This document shows, piece by piece, positions 31,099 to 37,504 of a stretch of 64,000 nucleotides of DNA. The first letter of the stretch is position 1. The number at the start of each line of letters is the position of its first letter. Made by a program: the position numbers and the translations under genes. Origin of the DNA: a virus; IMG/VR virus record IMGVR_UViG_3300036770_005816, positions 32,001-96,000 of that record; one strand, 5' to 3'. The notes under the pieces are model-generated. The model worked only from the letters and a program-made list of their open reading frames with translations. It was not told the DNA's origin and ran no database searches.

Positions 31099-33566
31099 TT
31101 GGACCTCTCCTGCACTGCCAGCATTGACCTATCGTAAACAACAACCACATTTGGTTCGGCATCACTATCTTCAGCAACTTCACTGACCCAACCATTGGAA
31201 ACAAGAACATTCAACCTAGTGCCCTTGACACCTCTCGCCGCCAAAGAACGGCTTATATCGTCATCACCATAAAAATTTGTTTCCCCACGCCCTATACGCG
31301 CGCGATGTTCGGCGACTGTTTTTTTCATTTCCTCGATAGACATCAATGCGTCTGGCGGAATTGCCACAACGAGCACTTCGCCACCGTCTTCGTAAAACCC
31401 TTGAGCATAAATATCGGCAGTTTCTCTATCTAGCGCAAAGTTAATGCCGTTGCCGTGCACCCCCATGCCCGCAAAATATTGACCGCTTCTGAAATCGTCA
31501 GCCATTTGTTTCGCTTTTATGACAGTTCCTTTCCCATCTTCACCCTCAACCATGGCTGTACTTAATCCTCTATATGCAATAATCCAACCTTCTTTACGGA
31601 GACGCTCTATCTCATCCGCAGAGACAACCTTTGGTGGTTTATCGAATCCCTGTTTTTCGGCAATCATTTCCAACTGAACATCCCGACCAACACCTTTTGG
31701 CACTTTCTCGAGCCTTTGTTTGTACTCTCTGCCTGCTTCAGACTTTTCGAATTCATCTTTGCTTTTACCAAATAGCGATGCCAAATCTTTAGTTAAGTCT
31801 CGTATTTGCCGCTTTAGTGGCGCAGGATATTTGTCGCCACCAGGACCGCTAACAAACCCGTCCCCGTCGCCGTCAATCTCAGACATACCGCCAATAGGCG
31901 TACCGAGAACCTTCACCGCCAAATTCTTTTTATCATTTTCTCCCGAATCAACCAAATCCCAGTACCCGAATTTCAACACGGCTGAAACACTCGGAACATC
32001 TATTCTTTCTCCATTCACGAGCAGATAGCCGACATCTTTGTCAACCTCAAACAATCTTGCTTCACCAGAAACGGCAATCAGTACACCAGACTCTCGCTTA
32101 TCGGATTTGCCTTGAAGGTCGCCCGGTTCAACAAATTTACCTTCTCTTGGCAAAATCTGAATAGGAACACCCAACTCAGCCAACCGTTTCTGAACATCTT
32201 TATTCGCGAACTTATAATTAAAAGGAACAGCGATATAGGCGATATCTTCAATCTTTACACCGCCAAATATCTGAGCCTCGAAGTATCGATTATTGTAAGA
32301 CGAATAGTCTGGCTTTTGGTCATTCACTGTCCCCGCCCAGCCACCCTGCACACCTATCCCCTTGGGGTCATTTAGTGGCGAAACACCCATAAATTGTCCT
32401 GCAATCGAATCACCGGCAGTCATCGTTGAACGCTCTTCCACACCGCGTTTCATAACCATTGTCAAACGACCATATGTTCCACCATTAACGCCAATCTGTT
32501 CAACACCATCCTCGAAAAAAAATCCGTACACCGGACGAGCAGATTTTTTGCTTCCAGCAACAGGGATTCCAAAAAGCATCTGTTCGGCAACTGCACGAAA
32601 CTCCATCTGCTTCCTTAATTTGTTTCGTTCTTGCGAATCCCTACGCTCTAGTTTCCACGCATCAATGAACGCATTCCGCCCATTATTTTCAAACAAATTT
32701 TTGTATTTCCCATCAGACAAAACCTTTTCCAGACCACCCTCAGATATGGCAATACCAATTCGGCGATTTTTGTTCTCTACAAGTTTTTTGGCAACTTCAT
32801 CTGCGTCGGGGACTGCGCCATCGCGTTTCACATCAGCCATGAACTGAATAATTTTCCCGCTCTTCTCCAGCCCCATAAGGCTGTGACCCAACCATCTGCC
32901 AATCGGGTTTGGATAATGCGCGGGAGAATTTTCGTATTTTTTGTACTCCAACATCGTTTTGTAAAACGGATGTGTTTCTTTCACGCCGTTTTGTTTAAGC
33001 GCTTCAATTACATGATTAACGTAATCATCGCTCCATTTTTTCACTTTCGCGTGGCGCGCCATTACCGGAACGCCGTTATCCCTGACGAACTTCAACAAAT
33101 CTTGAGATTCTTTAGAGTTTGCATCGTCACCAAGGTTTTTCAGTAATTCTTCAAAATACTTTTTGCCATCCGGGTCGTCTCTGTTCCCAATTACGCTGTG
33201 TGCACCGTCGAACAGTGCCACAATGACACTGTGTGCGTTGGGATTGTCTCCGTATTTATTCAGCCACGCGACGGCTATCGGTGCTAACCGTTTCTCAAAA
33301 TCAATCGCATCGTCCATTTGTTTGCGCAATTCGGGAGTCCACCCGTCCCTCAGTAAAGGCGCCCAAGGTCGGTTCTTTTTGTTTGCTTCAGCAAAATTGC
33401 TGGCAGGAACAAGGATTTCGTTAAGCCCATCAACAGCCTTTTTTATCGGCGCGGGGTACTTGTCACCGCCCGGACCGCTAACAAACCCGTCCCCATCACC
33501 ATCGACCTCGGACATCCCACCAATAGGGGTTCCAAGAACTTTTACATAAAGACCAGACACCCCCAT
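31095..33566 (-). CDS. Tagged polyprotein with two DGDGDG tags and two putative ADP-ribosyltransferase-fold domains (DUF3626-like and YRG..GxGxxF type)
   Basis: Tag at N-terminus and again internally; RPVYG...YG...STMTAGDS...YFEAQIFGGV; AYRGLS...GMGVHGNGINFA. Confidence 0.6.
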   Translation of the reverse strand: MGVSGLYVKVLGTPIGGMSEVDGDGDGFVSGPGGDKYPAPIKKAVDGLNEILVPASNFAEANKKNRPWAPLLRDGWTPELRKQMDDAIDFEKRLAPIAVAWLNKYGDNPNAHSVIVALFDGAHSVIGNRDDPDGKKYFEELLKNLGDDANSKESQDLLKFVRDNGVPVMARHAKVKKWSDDYVNHVIEALKQNGVKETHPFYKTMLEYKKYENSPAHYPNPIGRWLGHSLMGLEKSGKIIQFMADVKRDGAVPDADEVAKKLVENKNRRIGIAISEGGLEKVLSDGKYKNLFENNGRNAFIDAWKLERRDSQERNKLRKQMEFRAVAEQMLFGIPVAGSKKSARPVYGFFFEDGVEQIGVNGGTYGRLTMVMKRGVEERSTMTAGDSIAGQFMGVSPLNDPKGIGVQGGWAGTVNDQKPDYSSYNNRYFEAQIFGGVKIEDIAYIAVPFNYKFANKDVQKRLAELGVPIQILPREGKFVEPGDLQGKSDKRESGVLIAVSGEARLFEVDKDVGYLLVNGERIDVPSVSAVLKFGYWDLVDSGENDKKNLAVKVLGTPIGGMSEIDGDGDGFVSGPGGDKYPAPLKRQIRDLTKDLASLFGKSKDEFEKSEAGREYKQRLEKVPKGVGRDVQLEMIAEKQGFDKPPKVVSADEIERLRKEGWIIAYRGLSTAMVEGEDGKGTVIKAKQMADDFRSGQYFAGMGVHGNGINFALDRETADIYAQGFYEDGGEVLVVAIPPDALMSIEEMKKTVAEHRARIGRGETNFYGDDDISRSLAARGVKGTRLNVLVSNGWVSEVAEDSDAEPNVVVVYDRSMLAVQERSK

Positions 33567-33582
33567 ATTTTACTACGAACCA

Positions 33583-33852
33583 TCAACCACGCTCTAAACG
33601 AATAGCACCCTCCACAATTAAATCATTCACCGAAACCCTCTCCAACAACCCCAACAAAAACTCGGCATCAGGGTCACCAGCCTCAGCAGCCTCCCCCAAA
33701 AAATCCAACACATCCTGCTCCGTCCGAGCATCCCTCACCACCCACGGCGTAAAACCCTTCGGCACCAACCCCGAACCAGACAACCTGATTTCCCTAGACG
33801 CGACATCGCGAGACCCGCGTTGCACAGAACGACGCTTATGATGCTTCGGCAT
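33583..33852 (-). CDS. Hypothetical protein
   Basis: MPKHHKRR... ORF downstream of DUF1599-like gene. Confidence 0.45.
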   Translation of the reverse strand: MPKHHKRRSVQRGSRDVASREIRLSGSGLVPKGFTPWVVRDARTEQDVLDFLGEAAEAGDPDAEFLLGLLERVSVNDLIVEGAIRLERG

Positions 33853-34369
33853 ACGCCAAAGGTAGCAAAAACACTCCACCAACCCACATACAGCCGATAG
33901 CACAATAACCAACCACATCCAAAAGATTGTCAGCCAACGACTCATTCTGCGGAGACGCATCCCGCGCCAACAAATTCTCCAAACGCGCCACCTTGTCATG
34001 CAAACGAACAAACAACCCGCGCTCACCAAACCTACGAATATTCTCATGCCCGTAATCCGTCTGCTTACGAACCAGCGTCTTCGTCACCACATCAGCATCC
34101 AACTCATACCCAAGAACCGACGCCAACATCACACCAGCACGACCGATATCACGCCACGAAGCCAACCGAGCCTCCCCGCTACGCGACTGCTCCTCAAAAT
34201 CGAGACCGATAGCAGCATCCAAAAACGCGCGCAAATCCCCAACCGACCGCACCATCAATTTGTCACTGCTCAAACCACCAAAAATACGGTCAACCGCAAC
34301 CACAGCCGCATCATTCCACGAAACCCCAACCCGACCAGAACCCCAAAAAATGTGATTTTCCATACCCAC
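33836..34369 (-). CDS. DUF1599 / nucleotide-modification-associated domain protein
   Basis: KQTDYG...VRLHDKVARLENL...ESLADNLLDVVGY. Confidence 0.75.
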   Translation of the reverse strand: MGMENHIFWGSGRVGVSWNDAAVVAVDRIFGGLSSDKLMVRSVGDLRAFLDAAIGLDFEEQSRSGEARLASWRDIGRAGVMLASVLGYELDADVVTKTLVRKQTDYGHENIRRFGERGLFVRLHDKVARLENLLARDASPQNESLADNLLDVVGYCAIGCMWVGGVFLLPLAYAEAS

Positions 34370-34386
34370 ACAATAGACTCAAAACA

Positions 34387-34746
34387 GTGAACAACATACG
34401 CACCCAATACACCCGCCGAAGCAACGCCTACGTCATCCTCTGCTACGCCCGCATGATGGCACACTGGAAAGGGCGGGAATGGTTTACAGACAAGGACTAT
34501 CACACCTTCCAAGCAGGACGCATACAAACCAAACGAATCCGAGAAACCCTCAAACGGCTCGTCCAACAAAACTTCCTCACCAAAGACAACACCAACCCCA
34601 AAACACCCCGCTACCACATAACCGAAAAAGGAATCGGCGCAATCTACGACGTAGAACGCAGATACCCATCACAAGAAATCAACAAAGACATCTACCGACC
34701 CGTCCCCAAACAACAAAAACCCAAAGCCCCAGCCGTCATTAAATAA
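34387..34746 (+). CDS. Winged-helix-like protein
   Basis: LKRLVQQNFL...RYHITEKG wing motif. Confidence 0.55.
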   Translation: MNNIRTQYTRRSNAYVILCYARMMAHWKGREWFTDKDYHTFQAGRIQTKRIRETLKRLVQQNFLTKDNTNPKTPRYHITEKGIGAIYDVERRYPSQEINKDIYRPVPKQQKPKAPAVIK

Positions 34747-34753
34747 AACAAAC

Positions 34754-35296
34754 ATGCCCATCTCAGAAATAATGACACTCACCGCCAAAGAACTCATCCA
34801 CGTCGTCACCTGGGTCAAACAAGCACAAGCCAACAAACGCAACCACAAAGTAAACGACCAAATCTACGCAAAAACCCTCGGCTCAGAAGGCATCGCACTC
34901 ATGGGCAAATGCGGAGAAGTCATCGCCGCCCGCTACTACGGCGTCCAACCCGACTGGAACATCTACATCGGCGCAGACAACGGCAACGACCTCCACATCC
35001 ACAACAAAAAAACCGAAATCAAAACCTCAACCCAACGCAACCTCATCATCAACGACCCCGCCCACAACAAATACGGCATCTGGAAACCCGACACCGAAAT
35101 CTGCATCCTCGTCCACTGCAACCGACCCCCCAAAACCGCCATAACCATCAGCACCACCACACAATTCCAAATAATCGGCGCAATCAACCGCCACGAATTC
35201 TTCCAAATCGCCCAAAAACGCAACTACGGCTACGGACCCCGCCTAGTAGCCACAGAACAACAACTCCACGGCAACGAAATCTTCCAAATCAAATAA
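34754..35296 (+). CDS. Hypothetical protein, possible PD-(D/E)xK nuclease
   Basis: GKCGE...DNGND...TEIKT pattern. Confidence 0.45.
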   Translation: MPISEIMTLTAKELIHVVTWVKQAQANKRNHKVNDQIYAKTLGSEGIALMGKCGEVIAARYYGVQPDWNIYIGADNGNDLHIHNKKTEIKTSTQRNLIINDPAHNKYGIWKPDTEICILVHCNRPPKTAITISTTTQFQIIGAINRHEFFQIAQKRNYGYGPRLVATEQQLHGNEIFQIK

Positions 35297-35319
35297 CCCA
35301 AAACAACTAACATCAAACC

Positions 35320-36054
35320 GTGCAAACCAACACAATCACGGTCAACGACGCCACCCAAACACTCCAACAACTCCCCGACAACAGCATCCACACCGTCATC
35401 ACCTCACCCCCCTACAACAAAAAAGGCATAAACGGCGGCAAAACACAAAACAGCAACCAAATCTGGCAAAAACACAACATCAACTACAACCAATACCACG
35501 ACAACATGCCAGAACACCAATACCAACAATGGCTAATAGAAATAATCAACCAACTCCACCGCATCATCACACCAGACGGCTCAATCTTCCTCAACCACAA
35601 ACCCCGACGCCACAACAACCAAGCCCACCTCCCAACCGAAATAATCCACAAAACCAACGCCAACATCTACCAACTCATCATCTGGAACCGCCACAACTCC
35701 CCCAACATCCGAAACGACCACCTCCTCCCCAACACCGAACACATCTACTGGCTCACCAAAAACAAACCACGCACATACCGCAACCAACTACACCCCAAAT
35801 ACATCACCGAAATCTGGGACATCCCCCCACAAAAACAAAACCAACACCCCGCACCATTCCCACCACAACTCGTCGAAAACTGCATCCTCCTCACCACACA
35901 ACCCGGAGACATCATCCTCGACCCATTCAACGGAATCGGAACAACCACCACCACCGCACACAAACTCCAACGCCAATACATCGGCTACGACATAGACCCC
36001 CACTACACACAAATCGCACAACAAGCCATCACAGTCCCCGCTCTCACAAAATAA
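35320..36054 (+). CDS. DNA methyltransferase, N4-C/N6-A beta class
   Basis: VITSPPYN, HPAPFP, LDPFNGIGTT, YIGYDI. Confidence 0.9.
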   Translation: MQTNTITVNDATQTLQQLPDNSIHTVITSPPYNKKGINGGKTQNSNQIWQKHNINYNQYHDNMPEHQYQQWLIEIINQLHRIITPDGSIFLNHKPRRHNNQAHLPTEIIHKTNANIYQLIIWNRHNSPNIRNDHLLPNTEHIYWLTKNKPRTYRNQLHPKYITEIWDIPPQKQNQHPAPFPPQLVENCILLTTQPGDIILDPFNGIGTTTTTAHKLQRQYIGYDIDPHYTQIAQQAITVPALTK

Positions 36055-36152
36055 ACAGAACACACCCGACCAAAAAATTGGCGCACACCCGCCCCCGGTG
36101 CTGTCGAGGCGCCCCTAGGTTGTAGTCCCGCTTATTTGGCTTTTTTGTGTGT

Positions 36153-36265
36153 GAACATGTGTTCGTGTGTGTTTGTTGTGTGTGATTGGGGGCGAACATG
36201 TGTTTGTGGGGGCGAACATGTGTTTTTGTGTGTGAACATGTGTTCGTGTTTGCGAACATGTGTTT
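36153..36265. repeat. Five copies of GAACATGTGTT(C/T), 20-bp phased (LexA-box-like / iteron-like)
   Basis: Copies start at 36153, 36194, 36214, 36234, 36254. Confidence 0.85.
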
Positions 36266-36612
36266 GTTTGTGGTTTGTGGTTTGACTTTCGTTTCGTCGT
36301 GTTGTAAAGTGTTGTGCGATTATCCGTTTTGTTTATTTTGATGAAAGTGAGAGTGTGAGTGTGGCTAAGTACAGGTATCGGAATCGTTATGACATCGCAC
36401 CGTGTTATGAAGAGCGTGGTAAGTGGTGGGTTGTTGATACTGAGAGTCGTTATGCGAAGGTGAAGTTGTGTGGGTCTCGTGCTGAGGCGTTGCGTGAGTC
36501 GTATCGTCTTGACCGTGTGTTGGCGTGAAGTTTCGCAAGGCTCACGGGTGATTTACGGGTGATTTGTGATGTGTATTCGTATGATGAAACTAGGTGAGAG
36601 ACACATGAAAGG

Positions 36613-37284
36613 ATGTGTGAGTGTATGAGTTCGTTAGCGACTAAGTATTGTGATTTCATCACTGAACTTGCTCAACATAGGAAGAGTGAAGCATGTCTTA
36701 TGAATCGTGGTGTGACAGATACAAGTTCGTTCGTGTCTGTTTCGTACAGAGATGAGATGATGACCATTGACGCTACGGGTGGTGAAACACTTGTTGAGAC
36801 GCTACCTCGAACATTGGATGCTGTCATAAAGACAGGTCTCATGAAGTTTGATGTGCTTGCGTTCACCGCAGAAGTGTTCATGAAACCCGCAGAAGGTATG
36901 ACAGAAGAGGAAGCGAAACGATACAAGCGTGGCGACCTTGAGAAGGAATACCAAACGAATCCGCTAACCGATGTGATGGAAGGTTTGTTTACTGTCGTCA
37001 CTACTTGGGAAGGTGATACCGCATACCGTTTCGTGAAAGTGAACTACGACGACAGGGGGCAACCCGTGTACGGGGATACGGGTAGTGAAGTTGCTACCCC
37101 TCAACGAAACATGTCAGGGTTCGTGACTCGCATACTGAACGACTATCGTGACTACTGTCGTAGGGAACTCTCAACCGATGAAGGCAAAGAGTATCTCGAA
37201 GCGTTTGATGAACTCGTCACAGAGCAAGGGTCGTTAGCGAAGGCTGTCGCATACATAGCGAACCTAGACACAGGGAAGAACTAG
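36613..37284 (+). CDS. Hypothetical protein
   Basis: 223 aa ORF followed by inverted repeat at ~37295-37326. Confidence 0.6.
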   Translation: MCECMSSLATKYCDFITELAQHRKSEACLMNRGVTDTSSFVSVSYRDEMMTIDATGGETLVETLPRTLDAVIKTGLMKFDVLAFTAEVFMKPAEGMTEEEAKRYKRGDLEKEYQTNPLTDVMEGLFTVVTTWEGDTAYRFVKVNYDDRGQPVYGDTGSEVATPQRNMSGFVTRILNDYRDYCRRELSTDEGKEYLEAFDELVTEQGSLAKAVAYIANLDTGKN

Positions 37285-37504
37285 CGACGGGTTGCTCACG
37301 GGTAGCACCCCTACTACCCGTGAGACTCACCTCTAATCAGACATACGCCTCATACTCGATGTGGAGTTGGTCGTCGTGGAGATACTTGACTACCTCAACG
37401 GCTTTCTGTCTCGCCGTGTTGATGATGTCTGCTTCAGTCATGGTCTCAGTCGTATCCTCAACCTCGACTAGGAAGGTGACATAGCACTCGTAGAGAATCG
37501 TCAT

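Follow-up and report, generated by a model that had tools for sequence, protein, structure and literature searches.

An A/C-rich strand island that flips to G/T at a fixed point in a phage genome looks like the footprint of a DNA-level process

What could drive kilobases of one DNA strand towards a two-letter alphabet, through genes that remain intact, and then reverse the preference at a point? The question is raised by a locus in a stretch of 64,000 nucleotides of viral DNA (the window), which comprises bases 32001-96000 of the IMG/VR record IMGVR_UViG_3300036770_005816, a record of 133,214 bp that is rated 91% complete. At this locus, here termed the island, a long arm in which the + strand is rich in A and C meets a short arm in which it is rich in G and T, and the point of reversal, here termed the flip, falls inside a conserved element. 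Positions given below are those of the window unless they are marked as genome positions. The parts of the island are as follows.

33570-36110, no strand assigned: long arm, + strand A/C-rich (about 73% A+C), with the strongest bias adjoining the flip
36110-36650, no strand assigned: short arm, + strand rich in G and T (A.18, C.12, G.34, T.37), the bias fading out by about 36650
36069-36134, no strand assigned: boundary element, conserved and non-coding, with the sign change inside it; box A at 36069-36094, box B at 36117-36134

The island looks like the footprint of a process acting on the DNA and not of gene function. Our best explanation, to which we give a probability of roughly 40%, is that a strand-polar DNA transaction takes place at fixed sites and that the mismatches arising there are screened by NucS/EndoMS of the host.

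Base fractions over 33451-36150 are A.35, C.38, G.13 and T.13, and in 300-bp windows from 33450 to 36149 the GC skew lies between -0.34 and -0.705 and the AT skew between +0.31 and +0.63; over 36150-36449 the values are +0.557 and -0.396. A sequence-only reading of this DNA had described a change from A/C-rich to G/T-rich at about 36.11 kb, and the skew profiles confirm the change and show it to be stronger than described; the cumulative GC skew, which the same reading had proposed as a check, reaches its minimum at about 36.0-36.15 kb. Among the 64 1-kb bins of the window, an absolute GC skew above 0.4 is found only at 34001-36000. The skew between keto (G, T) and amino (A, C) bases, taken in 200-bp windows over the whole record, has a mean of -0.026 and a standard deviation of 0.150, and outside the islands the skew of the record weakly tracks gene direction. 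The composition step at the flip has a delta of 1.05 and that at a second flip, at genome 103,382, a delta of 1.12. These are the two largest steps in the genome; the next largest in the same direction is 0.43 and the standard deviation of the step measure is 0.134. At the first flip the sign reverses within about 50 bp.

The sequence-only reading had allowed that an assembly artefact at 36.1 kb might account for the change. Contigs of two runs cross the flip with no difference or one (X2, 9,268 nt, 0 differences; X4, 1,174 nt, 1 difference; both span 35876-37049 and beyond), and the island is therefore not an assembly joint. The same flip is present in independently assembled related contigs. 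In two further runs, X5 and X6, contigs end and begin at 36031-36060 with an overlap of 30 nt, which was taken as an ordinary graph break. A terminal repeat at the flip was considered and rejected: the depths of the right and left contigs, each a single figure per contig, are 90/78 (X2), 6.95/5 (X4), 31/27 (X5) and 8.81/7.43 (X6), with no two-fold step. No copy of the island was found elsewhere in the record, a self-search with the island giving two weak matches of 76-80% over about 100 bp, and self-BLAST of the whole record gave no repeat longer than 352 bp, none within the islands and no terminal repeat. BLAST of the island against a phage collection returned five cyanophage records only, covering 7% of the query inside a methylase gene, and is uninformative.

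Does the bias belong to the genes or to the DNA that carries them? The genes of the first island are encoded on both strands.

33583-33840, - strand: small minus gene, the C-terminal ~85 codons of open reading frame (ORF) 33583-34047, coding strand G/T-rich
33836-34369, - strand: phrog_1485 gene (E 1.9e-14), coded against the grain of the island
34387-34746, + strand: orf119, small protein, A/C-coded; the true start may lie further in
34754-35296, + strand: orf180, cargo gene, fully A/C-coded
35320-36054, + strand: N6/N4 DNA methyltransferase (MTase), intact cargo gene directly against the flip; PF01555, phrog_67
36355-36528, + strand: orf57, small gene in the short arm, coding strand G/T-rich

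Counting only codons that have a synonymous alternative, the three + strand genes of the long arm together end in A or C at 516 of 525 positions (orf180, 174/174 or 100%; MTase, 235/237 or 99%; orf119, 107/114 or 94%), against 73/248 in the ParB gene and 203/423 in the capsid gene, which served as controls. The two outlying minus strand genes favour the opposite class on their own coding strand, gene 33836-34369 ending in G or T at 145 of 168 such codons (86%; third positions G43 T43 A4 C9) and the conserved part of ORF 33583-34047 at 73 of 83 (88%). In the short arm, orf57 ends in G or T at 48 of 54 (third positions G43 T45 A5 C7), and the gene that follows it (36613-37284) is unskewed. Because genes of both directions share the same strand bias, the skew belongs to the DNA strand and the position and not to the genes, and these counts bear out the earlier claim that it is independent of gene direction.

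The MTase matches PF01555 at E 8.6e-44 (150.6 bits against a cut-off of 26.7) over profile positions 1-220 of 221 in an open frame, and phrog_67 at E 2.9e-56, and has 913 homologues at E <= 1e-10. Its translation shows SPPY and FNGIG-type motifs, which we take to be catalytic and S-adenosylmethionine-binding motifs. The residues K, N, T, Q, H and P (KNTQHP) make up 52% of the protein in the window, 32.7 +/- 1.9% of 100 listed homologues of at most 59% identity and 41.6% of 19 homologues of 71-78% identity, so that the shift in amino acid composition suspected by the sequence-only reading is found on comparison with homologues. The silent sites of intact genes are driven to a two-letter alphabet (174/174 codons in orf180) and the proteins are dragged along. 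Minus gene 33836-34369 is real, because it matches phrog_1485 and has nine related loci; a match to PF07659 (DUF1599) at E 0.0084 is under the curated cut-off and faint. The conserved part of ORF 33583-34047 was recognised by BLASTP to ORFs at the same place in related contigs (L005, 55% over 86 amino acids; G001, 47% over 85 amino acids). Homologues of orf119 at 28-32% identity lie at the same place in G001, L005 and L007. The strains in runs X5 and X6, from a second study, diverge by about 2-6% elsewhere in the stretch and have 34462-34728, within orf119, replaced by an unlike piece of 256 nt; the island is kept in them. A homologue 55% identical to orf180 lies elsewhere in the L007 arm, and orf180 itself gave no PHROG family and no Pfam family above the curated cut-off. 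No family match was found for orf57 in Pfam or PHROG scans.

The second island lies outside the window, with an A/C-rich part at genome 102751-103400 (0.65 kb) and a G/T-rich part at genome 103401-106050 (2.65 kb). It is the mirror image of the first, the short arm coming before the long arm, and the flips are about 35 kb apart. In both G000, the present record, and G001 the two flips share one polarity: read 5' to 3' along either strand, A/C-rich sequence precedes the point and G/T-rich sequence follows it, and the long arms point away from the ~35-kb early region that the flips bracket. The first island sits between a leftward structural/MuF-like block and small early genes with genes for ParB-like, RuvC-like and SNF2-helicase proteins. 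The second contains an exonuclease (phrog_284), an HslV-like peptidase (phrog_1040), WhiB, a tRNA-Ile(tat) and two small genes, and all genes in both of its arms have A/C-rich coding strands.

Alone, the genes of the second island would suggest a property of the mRNA, and codon usage, transcription-coupled mutation or recent transfer from a skewed donor would be gene-level causes for it. However, the strand bias of the first island is common to genes of both directions, different cargo at the same place is skewed alike in relatives, the skew of the MTase follows its distance from the flip (see below) and, in a relative, L072, the flip of the second island lies within a single gene. The third positions of this gene of 61 codons go from 87% A/C over the 5' half to 100% G/T over the 3' half, the change falling within about 10 bp, and it is homologous to a fully A/C-coded G000 gene (E 1e-18). 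A pair of orthologues on opposite sides of the flip, L004 2928-3263 (+), in G000, and L072 7927-8340 (-), matches at E 5e-29 with 36% identity; the third positions are A35 C61 G2 T3 in G000 and A4 C1 G49 T46 in L072. These are small Cys-motif proteins in which PGWLKN and the Cys motifs are retained despite the opposite alphabets, and the same family uses Thr, Ile, Asn, Gln and Pro on one side of the flip and Val, Gly, Leu and Phe on the other. Gene-level causes are excluded, and codon usage, which the sequence-only reading had named as the other possible way to explain the skew away, goes with them. What matters to the cause is only the distance from, and the side relative to, a point in the DNA.

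That point is conserved, as inspection of the orthologous region in relatives, another check suggested beforehand, has shown. Among nine loci with the phrog_1485 gene, five have the island and the flip (L005-L009, of which L008 and L009 are near-identical) and four distant loci (55-63% GC) do not. The methylase gene lies in an A/C-rich domain in 31 of 33 loci and is unskewed in L052 and L056. A downstream flip with a step above 0.8 follows in 20 of the 33 and a weaker one of 0.57-0.71 in four, the contig ends first in seven and there is none in the two unskewed loci; many of these loci are close relatives and the counts are not independent events. At loci with the HslV gene the second island is present in 24 of 30 and lacking in the six most distant (50-53% identity), and its flip can be seen in 21 of these, the contig stopping short of it in the remaining three. 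Between the conserved left genes and the first flip the cargo varies among relatives and yet is equally skewed; the long arm of the first island is a mosaic of swapped cargo. Near the flip, replaced segments alternate with stretches of 90-97% identity, although a two-letter alphabet inflates identity and such profiles are a hint of mosaicism only.

The bias fades with distance. Averaged over 13 loci, the keto skew to the left of box B starts at -0.50 and weakens to -0.43 by 0.8 kb, to about -0.33 between 1 and 2.4 kb, to -0.25 by 3 kb, to -0.15 between 4 and 5 kb and to -0.08 by 6 kb; to the right it falls from +0.44 through +0.27 and +0.19 to about 0 by 600 bp. The MTase gene, which lies at different distances from the flip in different relatives, follows the same course, with third-position A/C of 96% at 22 bp, 81-85% at 1.3-1.6 kb, 74-76% at 1.7 kb, 68% at 2.8 kb, 60-63% at 3.9-4.8 kb and 43% without an island (Spearman rho -0.91 over 12 distinct loci, one of which, L046, is aligned over 59 codons only). 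For HslV, third-position A/C ranges from 63 to 98% across lineages at similar distance, and since the strength of the bias varies in this way distance is not the sole factor.

A fixed point in the DNA might be a physical genome end, or a pac/cos cut, the arms being two ends that were joined in assembly. A site-specific double-strand cut could anchor a process, unequal arms would be expected if one side of the cut were protected, and many related contigs begin or end in the islands, one 34-kb contig having L036 and L068 at its ends. However, there are two flips and not one, both of them are crossed by large related contigs (138 kb, rated 97% complete; 145 kb, rated 100%), the record is without a terminal repeat, and contig breaks are common in hypervariable regions of metagenome assemblies. 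A genome end is therefore very unlikely to be the explanation, and assemblies perhaps break in the islands from strain-level mosaicism there. The G001 contig ends 1.5 kb beyond its second flip. In the comparison with contigs of the runs, no pile-up of starts or ends is listed at the first flip, although contigs are unable to show one.

Is the bias one of mutation or of fixation? Island genes and flanking genes were compared at fourfold-degenerate sites in the same 12 genome pairs, island genes with less than 80% A/C there being dropped. The 953 island sites (A412 C442 G52 T47) show the differences AC 113, AG 28, CT 37, AT 14, CG 15 and GT 11, and the 1,698 control sites show AG 132, CT 126, AC 116, AT 81, CG 45 and GT 39. 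If changes away from A and C occurred at the control rate and the composition were stationary, the island would be expected to show about 125 AG, about 134 CT, 66 AT and 58 CG differences; those observed are 4.5, 3.6, 4.7 and 3.8 times fewer. A<->C differences, with 97 expected, are 1.2 times and G<->T differences, with 6 expected, 1.9 times the expectation. Expressed per site, changes towards A or C occur at 1.8-2.6 times and changes towards G or T at 0.21-0.28 times the control rate. There is no hypermutation; it is membership of the amino or the keto class that decides, with transitions and transversions affected equally. Because changes towards G and T are deficient, transitions and transversions alike, with no excess of mutation, the pattern points to a bias of fixation or repair. 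The 1.8-2.6-fold rise and the 3.6-4.7-fold drop together fit a scaled bias of about 2-2.5 by the standard formula.

Three further comparisons were made. Differences at all sites in 10 close pairs, which mix constrained and free sites, go in the same direction, the ratio of transitions to A<->C differences being 1.31 within the A/C arm and 6.12 for the flanks. In G/T-coded island genes (353 sites: GT 30, CT 21, AG 3, AT 2, CG 3, AC 2) the agreement is partial, C<->T differences being frequent in two pairs in which one member is skewed differently from the other. When the unskewed MTase of L052 was compared with that of the window at fourfold sites, T in the outgroup corresponded to A at nine sites and to C at nine, a comparison that is saturated and uninformative on the path of mutation.

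The heavy strand of vertebrate mitochondrial DNA suffers deamination while it is single-stranded, and a bidirectional origin with strand-specific damage (C to U, A to hypoxanthine), or with G.T mispairs made by an error-prone initiating polymerase, could be proposed for the present locus. The minimum of cumulative GC skew, its origin-type polarity and the sharp change of sign would suit an origin, as would five evenly spaced repeats 40 bp from the flip and the genes for ParB-like, RuvC-like and SNF2-helicase proteins to the right, and a record in which no polymerase, primase or DnaB is recognisable would be copied by the host replisome. In Corynebacterium glutamicum, moreover, the leading strand of the wild type shows 48 A->G changes against 13 T->C (PMC6159521). 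The substitutions nevertheless do not fit. Depletion is as strong for the transversions A<->T and C<->G as for transitions, a result that neither deamination nor G.T mispairing predicts; changes towards G and T are about 4-fold too rare, rather than changes towards A and C about 10-fold too common; change within each class proceeds at the control rate, without hypermutation; and T is purged as fully as G. The pattern is not that of strand-specific deamination or G.T mispairing. The skew is also local (about 2.7 kb and 0.55 kb) rather than replichore-wide, there are two such points, and the repeats near the flip are not conserved in relatives. An origin acting through damage or mispairing seems distinctly unlikely.

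What, then, lies at the flip itself? Box A of the boundary element ends in ACC-GCCC and is separated by a variable spacer of about 22 nt from box B, which ends in the octamer AGTCCCGC (36124-36131). The element was found at the flip, by alignment and pattern search, in all 13 distinct MTase loci inspected. Scanning viral contigs with the element pattern gave six stretches, of which four are known relatives and two are chance matches (L017, L018) without skew. No Rfam family matches the element, a scan of 33000-37500 at E <= 1 giving only a chance snoRNA at E 0.98, and local RNAalifold with five sequences gave no covarying fold but short weak hairpins on either strand; with both unsupportive, an RNA element at the flip is not claimed. 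In its general form, AGYCCCGC, the octamer has 30 copies in the record (18 on the + strand and 12 on the - strand), all of them within genome 68124-101923 (window 36124-69923), and the outermost, first copy is that of box B at the first flip. The copies often form inverted pairs 15-30 bp apart. Four larger relatives have 30-36 copies, confined between the two flips, against 3-4 copies of a control word, and the octamer is probably an operator or promoter box of the early region. Two further features lie in the short arm.

36153-36264, + strand: five exact GAACATGTGTT repeats, each containing the palindrome AACATGTT, with start spacings of 41, 20, 20 and 20 bp
36282-36310, + strand: promoter-like site, TTGACT, 17 nt, TAAAGT, upstream of orf57; consensus match only

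The GAACATGTGTT repeats are 11-mers that start about 40 bp from the flip. With up to one mismatch allowed there are 9 matches against 1.79 expected (0 of 100 shuffles reach 9), and all five exact copies are in this array; none stands at this place in the relatives inspected. The array is probably a phage-specific array of operators or iterons, and a centromere-like role may be a further option. Promoter-like sites number 2 in the region against 3.7 expected, so that the match carries no weight alone; in relatives a TTGACA-type box lies to the right of the boundary element. There are no tRNAs within the window. The only two in the record are Ile(tat) at the second flip (genome 103268-103341) and Arg(tct) beside that island (genome 106595-106668), and G001 has Thr(tgt) and Ile(tat) at 109101-109176 and 112628-112701. 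All four decode A-ending codons, and per 1000 codons the island and control values are 15.6 and 8.4 for ATA and 6.1 and 16.0 for AGA; the link between the tRNAs and codon usage in the island is weak.

The host of the phage is assigned, from its gene content, to the actinobacteria, because the genome carries a WhiB gene (PF02467, E 2.9e-15) and the capsid gene has about 70% DNA identity to those of Gordonia, Brevibacterium and Arthrobacter phages. A search of genome contigs with WhiB found four loci on short contigs of metagenome-assembled genomes (MAGs) labelled as archaeon or planctomycete, and a weak haloarchaeal match; in L092-L094, from MAGs labelled as a marine archaeon and as planctomycetes, WhiB is 70-74% identical, and these are probably misbinned phage contigs. 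Searches of the record found no match to Prim-Pol (PF09250), DNA_pol_A (PF00476) or DnaB_C (PF03796), and no polymerase was found among 10 further large ORFs of the record; at 91% completeness this does not prove such genes absent. Replication may proceed by the host replisome or by unrecognised proteins. The sequence-only reading had suggested an origin, a genome end or pac junction, or selection on first-entering DNA. Of this, a DNA-level process tied to a fixed point is supported, by the conserved element, the decay with distance and the origin-type polarity; none of the three specific readings is established, and against an origin speak the GAACATGTGTT repeats being unconserved, no initiator, polymerase, primase or DnaB having been found in the record and the substitutions being unlike those of strand-specific damage.

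A fixation or repair bias that sorts changes by amino and keto class calls to mind NucS/EndoMS, a non-canonical mismatch repair system of Actinobacteria and Archaea (PMC8228993; PMC5290159). In Mycobacterium smegmatis, dG-dG, dG-dT and dT-dT mismatches of an annealed strand are removed in a NucS-dependent manner in a short patch, while dC-dC, dA-dA, dG-dA, dA-dG, dC-dA and dA-dC persist (PMC11551744). The EndoMS of C. glutamicum likewise cleaves G/T, G/G and T/T but not C/A (PMC6159521). The substrates G/T, G/G and T/T map one-to-one onto the changes that are depleted on the A/C-rich strand, namely A->G, C->T, A->T and C->G, and the blind spots A/C, A/A, C/C, A/G and C/T map onto the classes of change that pass. 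NucS differs in being known as a genome-wide guard of replication fidelity, and we infer its presence in the host, its role here as the filter of a local skew and the nature of the anchored transaction.

The sequence of events would be as follows. At the two sites flanking the early region, it would repeatedly be the same strand that is newly made or incoming, either through a site-specific break followed by strand invasion and annealing or through strand-specific synthesis from an origin, in tracts spanning a few kb outward and a few hundred bp inward. Mismatches in these tracts would be screened by the host NucS/EndoMS, which would recognise only G/T, G/G and T/T. A G or T of the incoming strand that differs from a resident A or C would face a keto base, and the keto-keto mismatch would be removed; incoming A and C variants would always pass, as would exchanges between A and C and between G and T. 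The incoming strand would thus ratchet towards A and C and its partner towards G and T, most strongly at the anchor, pulling silent sites first and amino acids afterwards. In the first variant, a site-specific break whose ends are resected 5'-3' and whose 3' tails then invade would give the polarity on both sides and the gradient on a kilobase scale, and the mosaic of swapped cargo in the long arm is what would be expected at a recombination hotspot. In the origin variant, the nascent lagging strand would make more of the mismatches that NucS does not see, in the direction of the wild-type C. glutamicum figures given above. Both the break and the origin variant would fit the pattern.

Several points weigh against this explanation. 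The outer edge of the island in the window, at about 33570, is abrupt and not gradual. The second flip has no motif in common with the first and its position varies among lineages, and the AGYCCCGC octamer of box B is repeated through the early region (30 copies) with no flips there, so that the octamer alone is not the cause of a flip. At neither flip was a nickase, an initiator or a recombinase identified. The WhiB matches on MAG contigs, with their unlikely taxa, are unusable as evidence for the host or for NucS. The fourfold test draws on 99 G/T sites at divergences of up to about 0.3 per site, with multiple hits, and on pairs that are not fully independent and genes whose ages may differ through recombination. 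Skewed repeats are also reported from phyla that are not dependent on NucS (PMC8256042), and NucS is therefore not the general cause of such skews. Finally, direct selection on composition would give an identical substitution signature.

Direct selection would mean that G and T are kept out of one strand to prevent folding, of the DNA or of its transcript, or to avoid palindromic restriction sites; in a variant it would serve first-entering or single-stranded DNA, such as 3' tails for recombination or replication restart. The substitutions show a fixation bias and not extra mutation, which is what selection would produce, and its case is helped by the extreme saturation (174/174 and 235/237 synonymous choices), by an outer edge in the window that falls abruptly between genes, by islands that bracket an early region with repeated promoter or operator octamers and by a cargo that includes a DNA methylase. 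Selection would, however, have to be effective at each silent site, whichever way the gene points. One cut anywhere kills the phage, and shielding 3 kb of 133 kb would gain little; in relatives the bias falls off smoothly across 5-6 kb; and the flip can fall within about 10 bp inside a gene, with orthologues recoded in opposite directions. We know of no function that needs kilobases of two-letter DNA. On balance we hold selection to be unlikely, and prefer an anchored, strand-polar transaction filtered by NucS.

Were this preferred explanation true, the flips would mark the exact sites at which strand exchange or synthesis starts, and such sites could be read from sequence in actinobacterial phages. 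Gene finders that use composition, tests for horizontal transfer and tests for selection would have to allow for islands of this kind.

The nearest described system is GRINS (Nivina et al., 2021; PMC8256042). The islands share with it the same axis of G+T against C+A with correlated GC and TA skews, a focus on third codon positions, abrupt sign changes and a location in working genes, whose proteins move towards Pro, Thr, His and Gln when the skew is of negative sense. GRINS are most frequent in Actinobacteria and have been linked to gene conversion, their own mechanism being stated as unknown; single-copy skewed regions are mentioned, and integrases and phages are among the genes that bear GRINS (PMC8256042). 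By definition GRINS are duplicated, being longer than 500 bp with more than 80% identity to another region (PMC8256042). Mean absolute GC and TA skews above 0.15, over more than 500 bp, are found in the 2.7-kb island, as are correlated skews, a third-position peak (93-100% of one class in the A/C-coded genes) and the amino acid shift (KNTQHP 52% against 32.7%); self-searches of the record gave no duplication at more than 80% identity. The phage island also differs in being single-copy, tied to two fixed points and of one polarity, in decaying with distance, in covering unrelated cargo and in being conserved in position across a phage clade. Literature searches, at the level of listings and abstracts, gave no earlier description of such islands in phages beyond GRINS, and no paper that links NucS to local skew, to GRINS or to phage genomes. 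It is a tentative and somewhat doubtful proposal that the amino/keto skews of phage islands and of the GRINS in actinobacterial gene clusters are alike a by-product of NucS removing only keto-keto mismatches. The present clade offers a natural experiment, with fixed anchors, a measurable gradient, the same gene at several distances and a substitution signature; NucS is a concrete and testable candidate.

Replication-associated strand asymmetry, as in the GC and TA skew of bacterial leading and lagging strands and in the heavy and light strands of vertebrate mitochondria, has the same axis of keto against amino bases, a change of sign at a point and the polarity of an origin; in mitochondria it also has a gradient set by single-strand exposure and an effect on protein composition. 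The island differs in being local (3 kb) and far stronger (97-100% at silent sites), in having two points of equal polarity 35 kb apart, in that transversions are affected as transitions are, and in showing a deficit of changes towards G and T rather than an excess towards A and C. In eukaryotes, biased gene conversion (gBGC) at recombination hotspots favours G/C over A/T. Like the process proposed here, it is a fixation bias that arises through the resolution of mismatches in heteroduplex, peaks at the site of initiation, fades over kilobases and mimics selection. It acts, however, on both strands and leaves no strand skew, whereas the island favours A and C on one strand, which calls for a constant strand polarity and for mismatch repair that discriminates by keto content. 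The tentative reading of phage islands and GRINS as a by-product of NucS would, if true, amount to a strand-asymmetric form of biased gene conversion, in which the strand that is habitually incoming is driven towards A and C.

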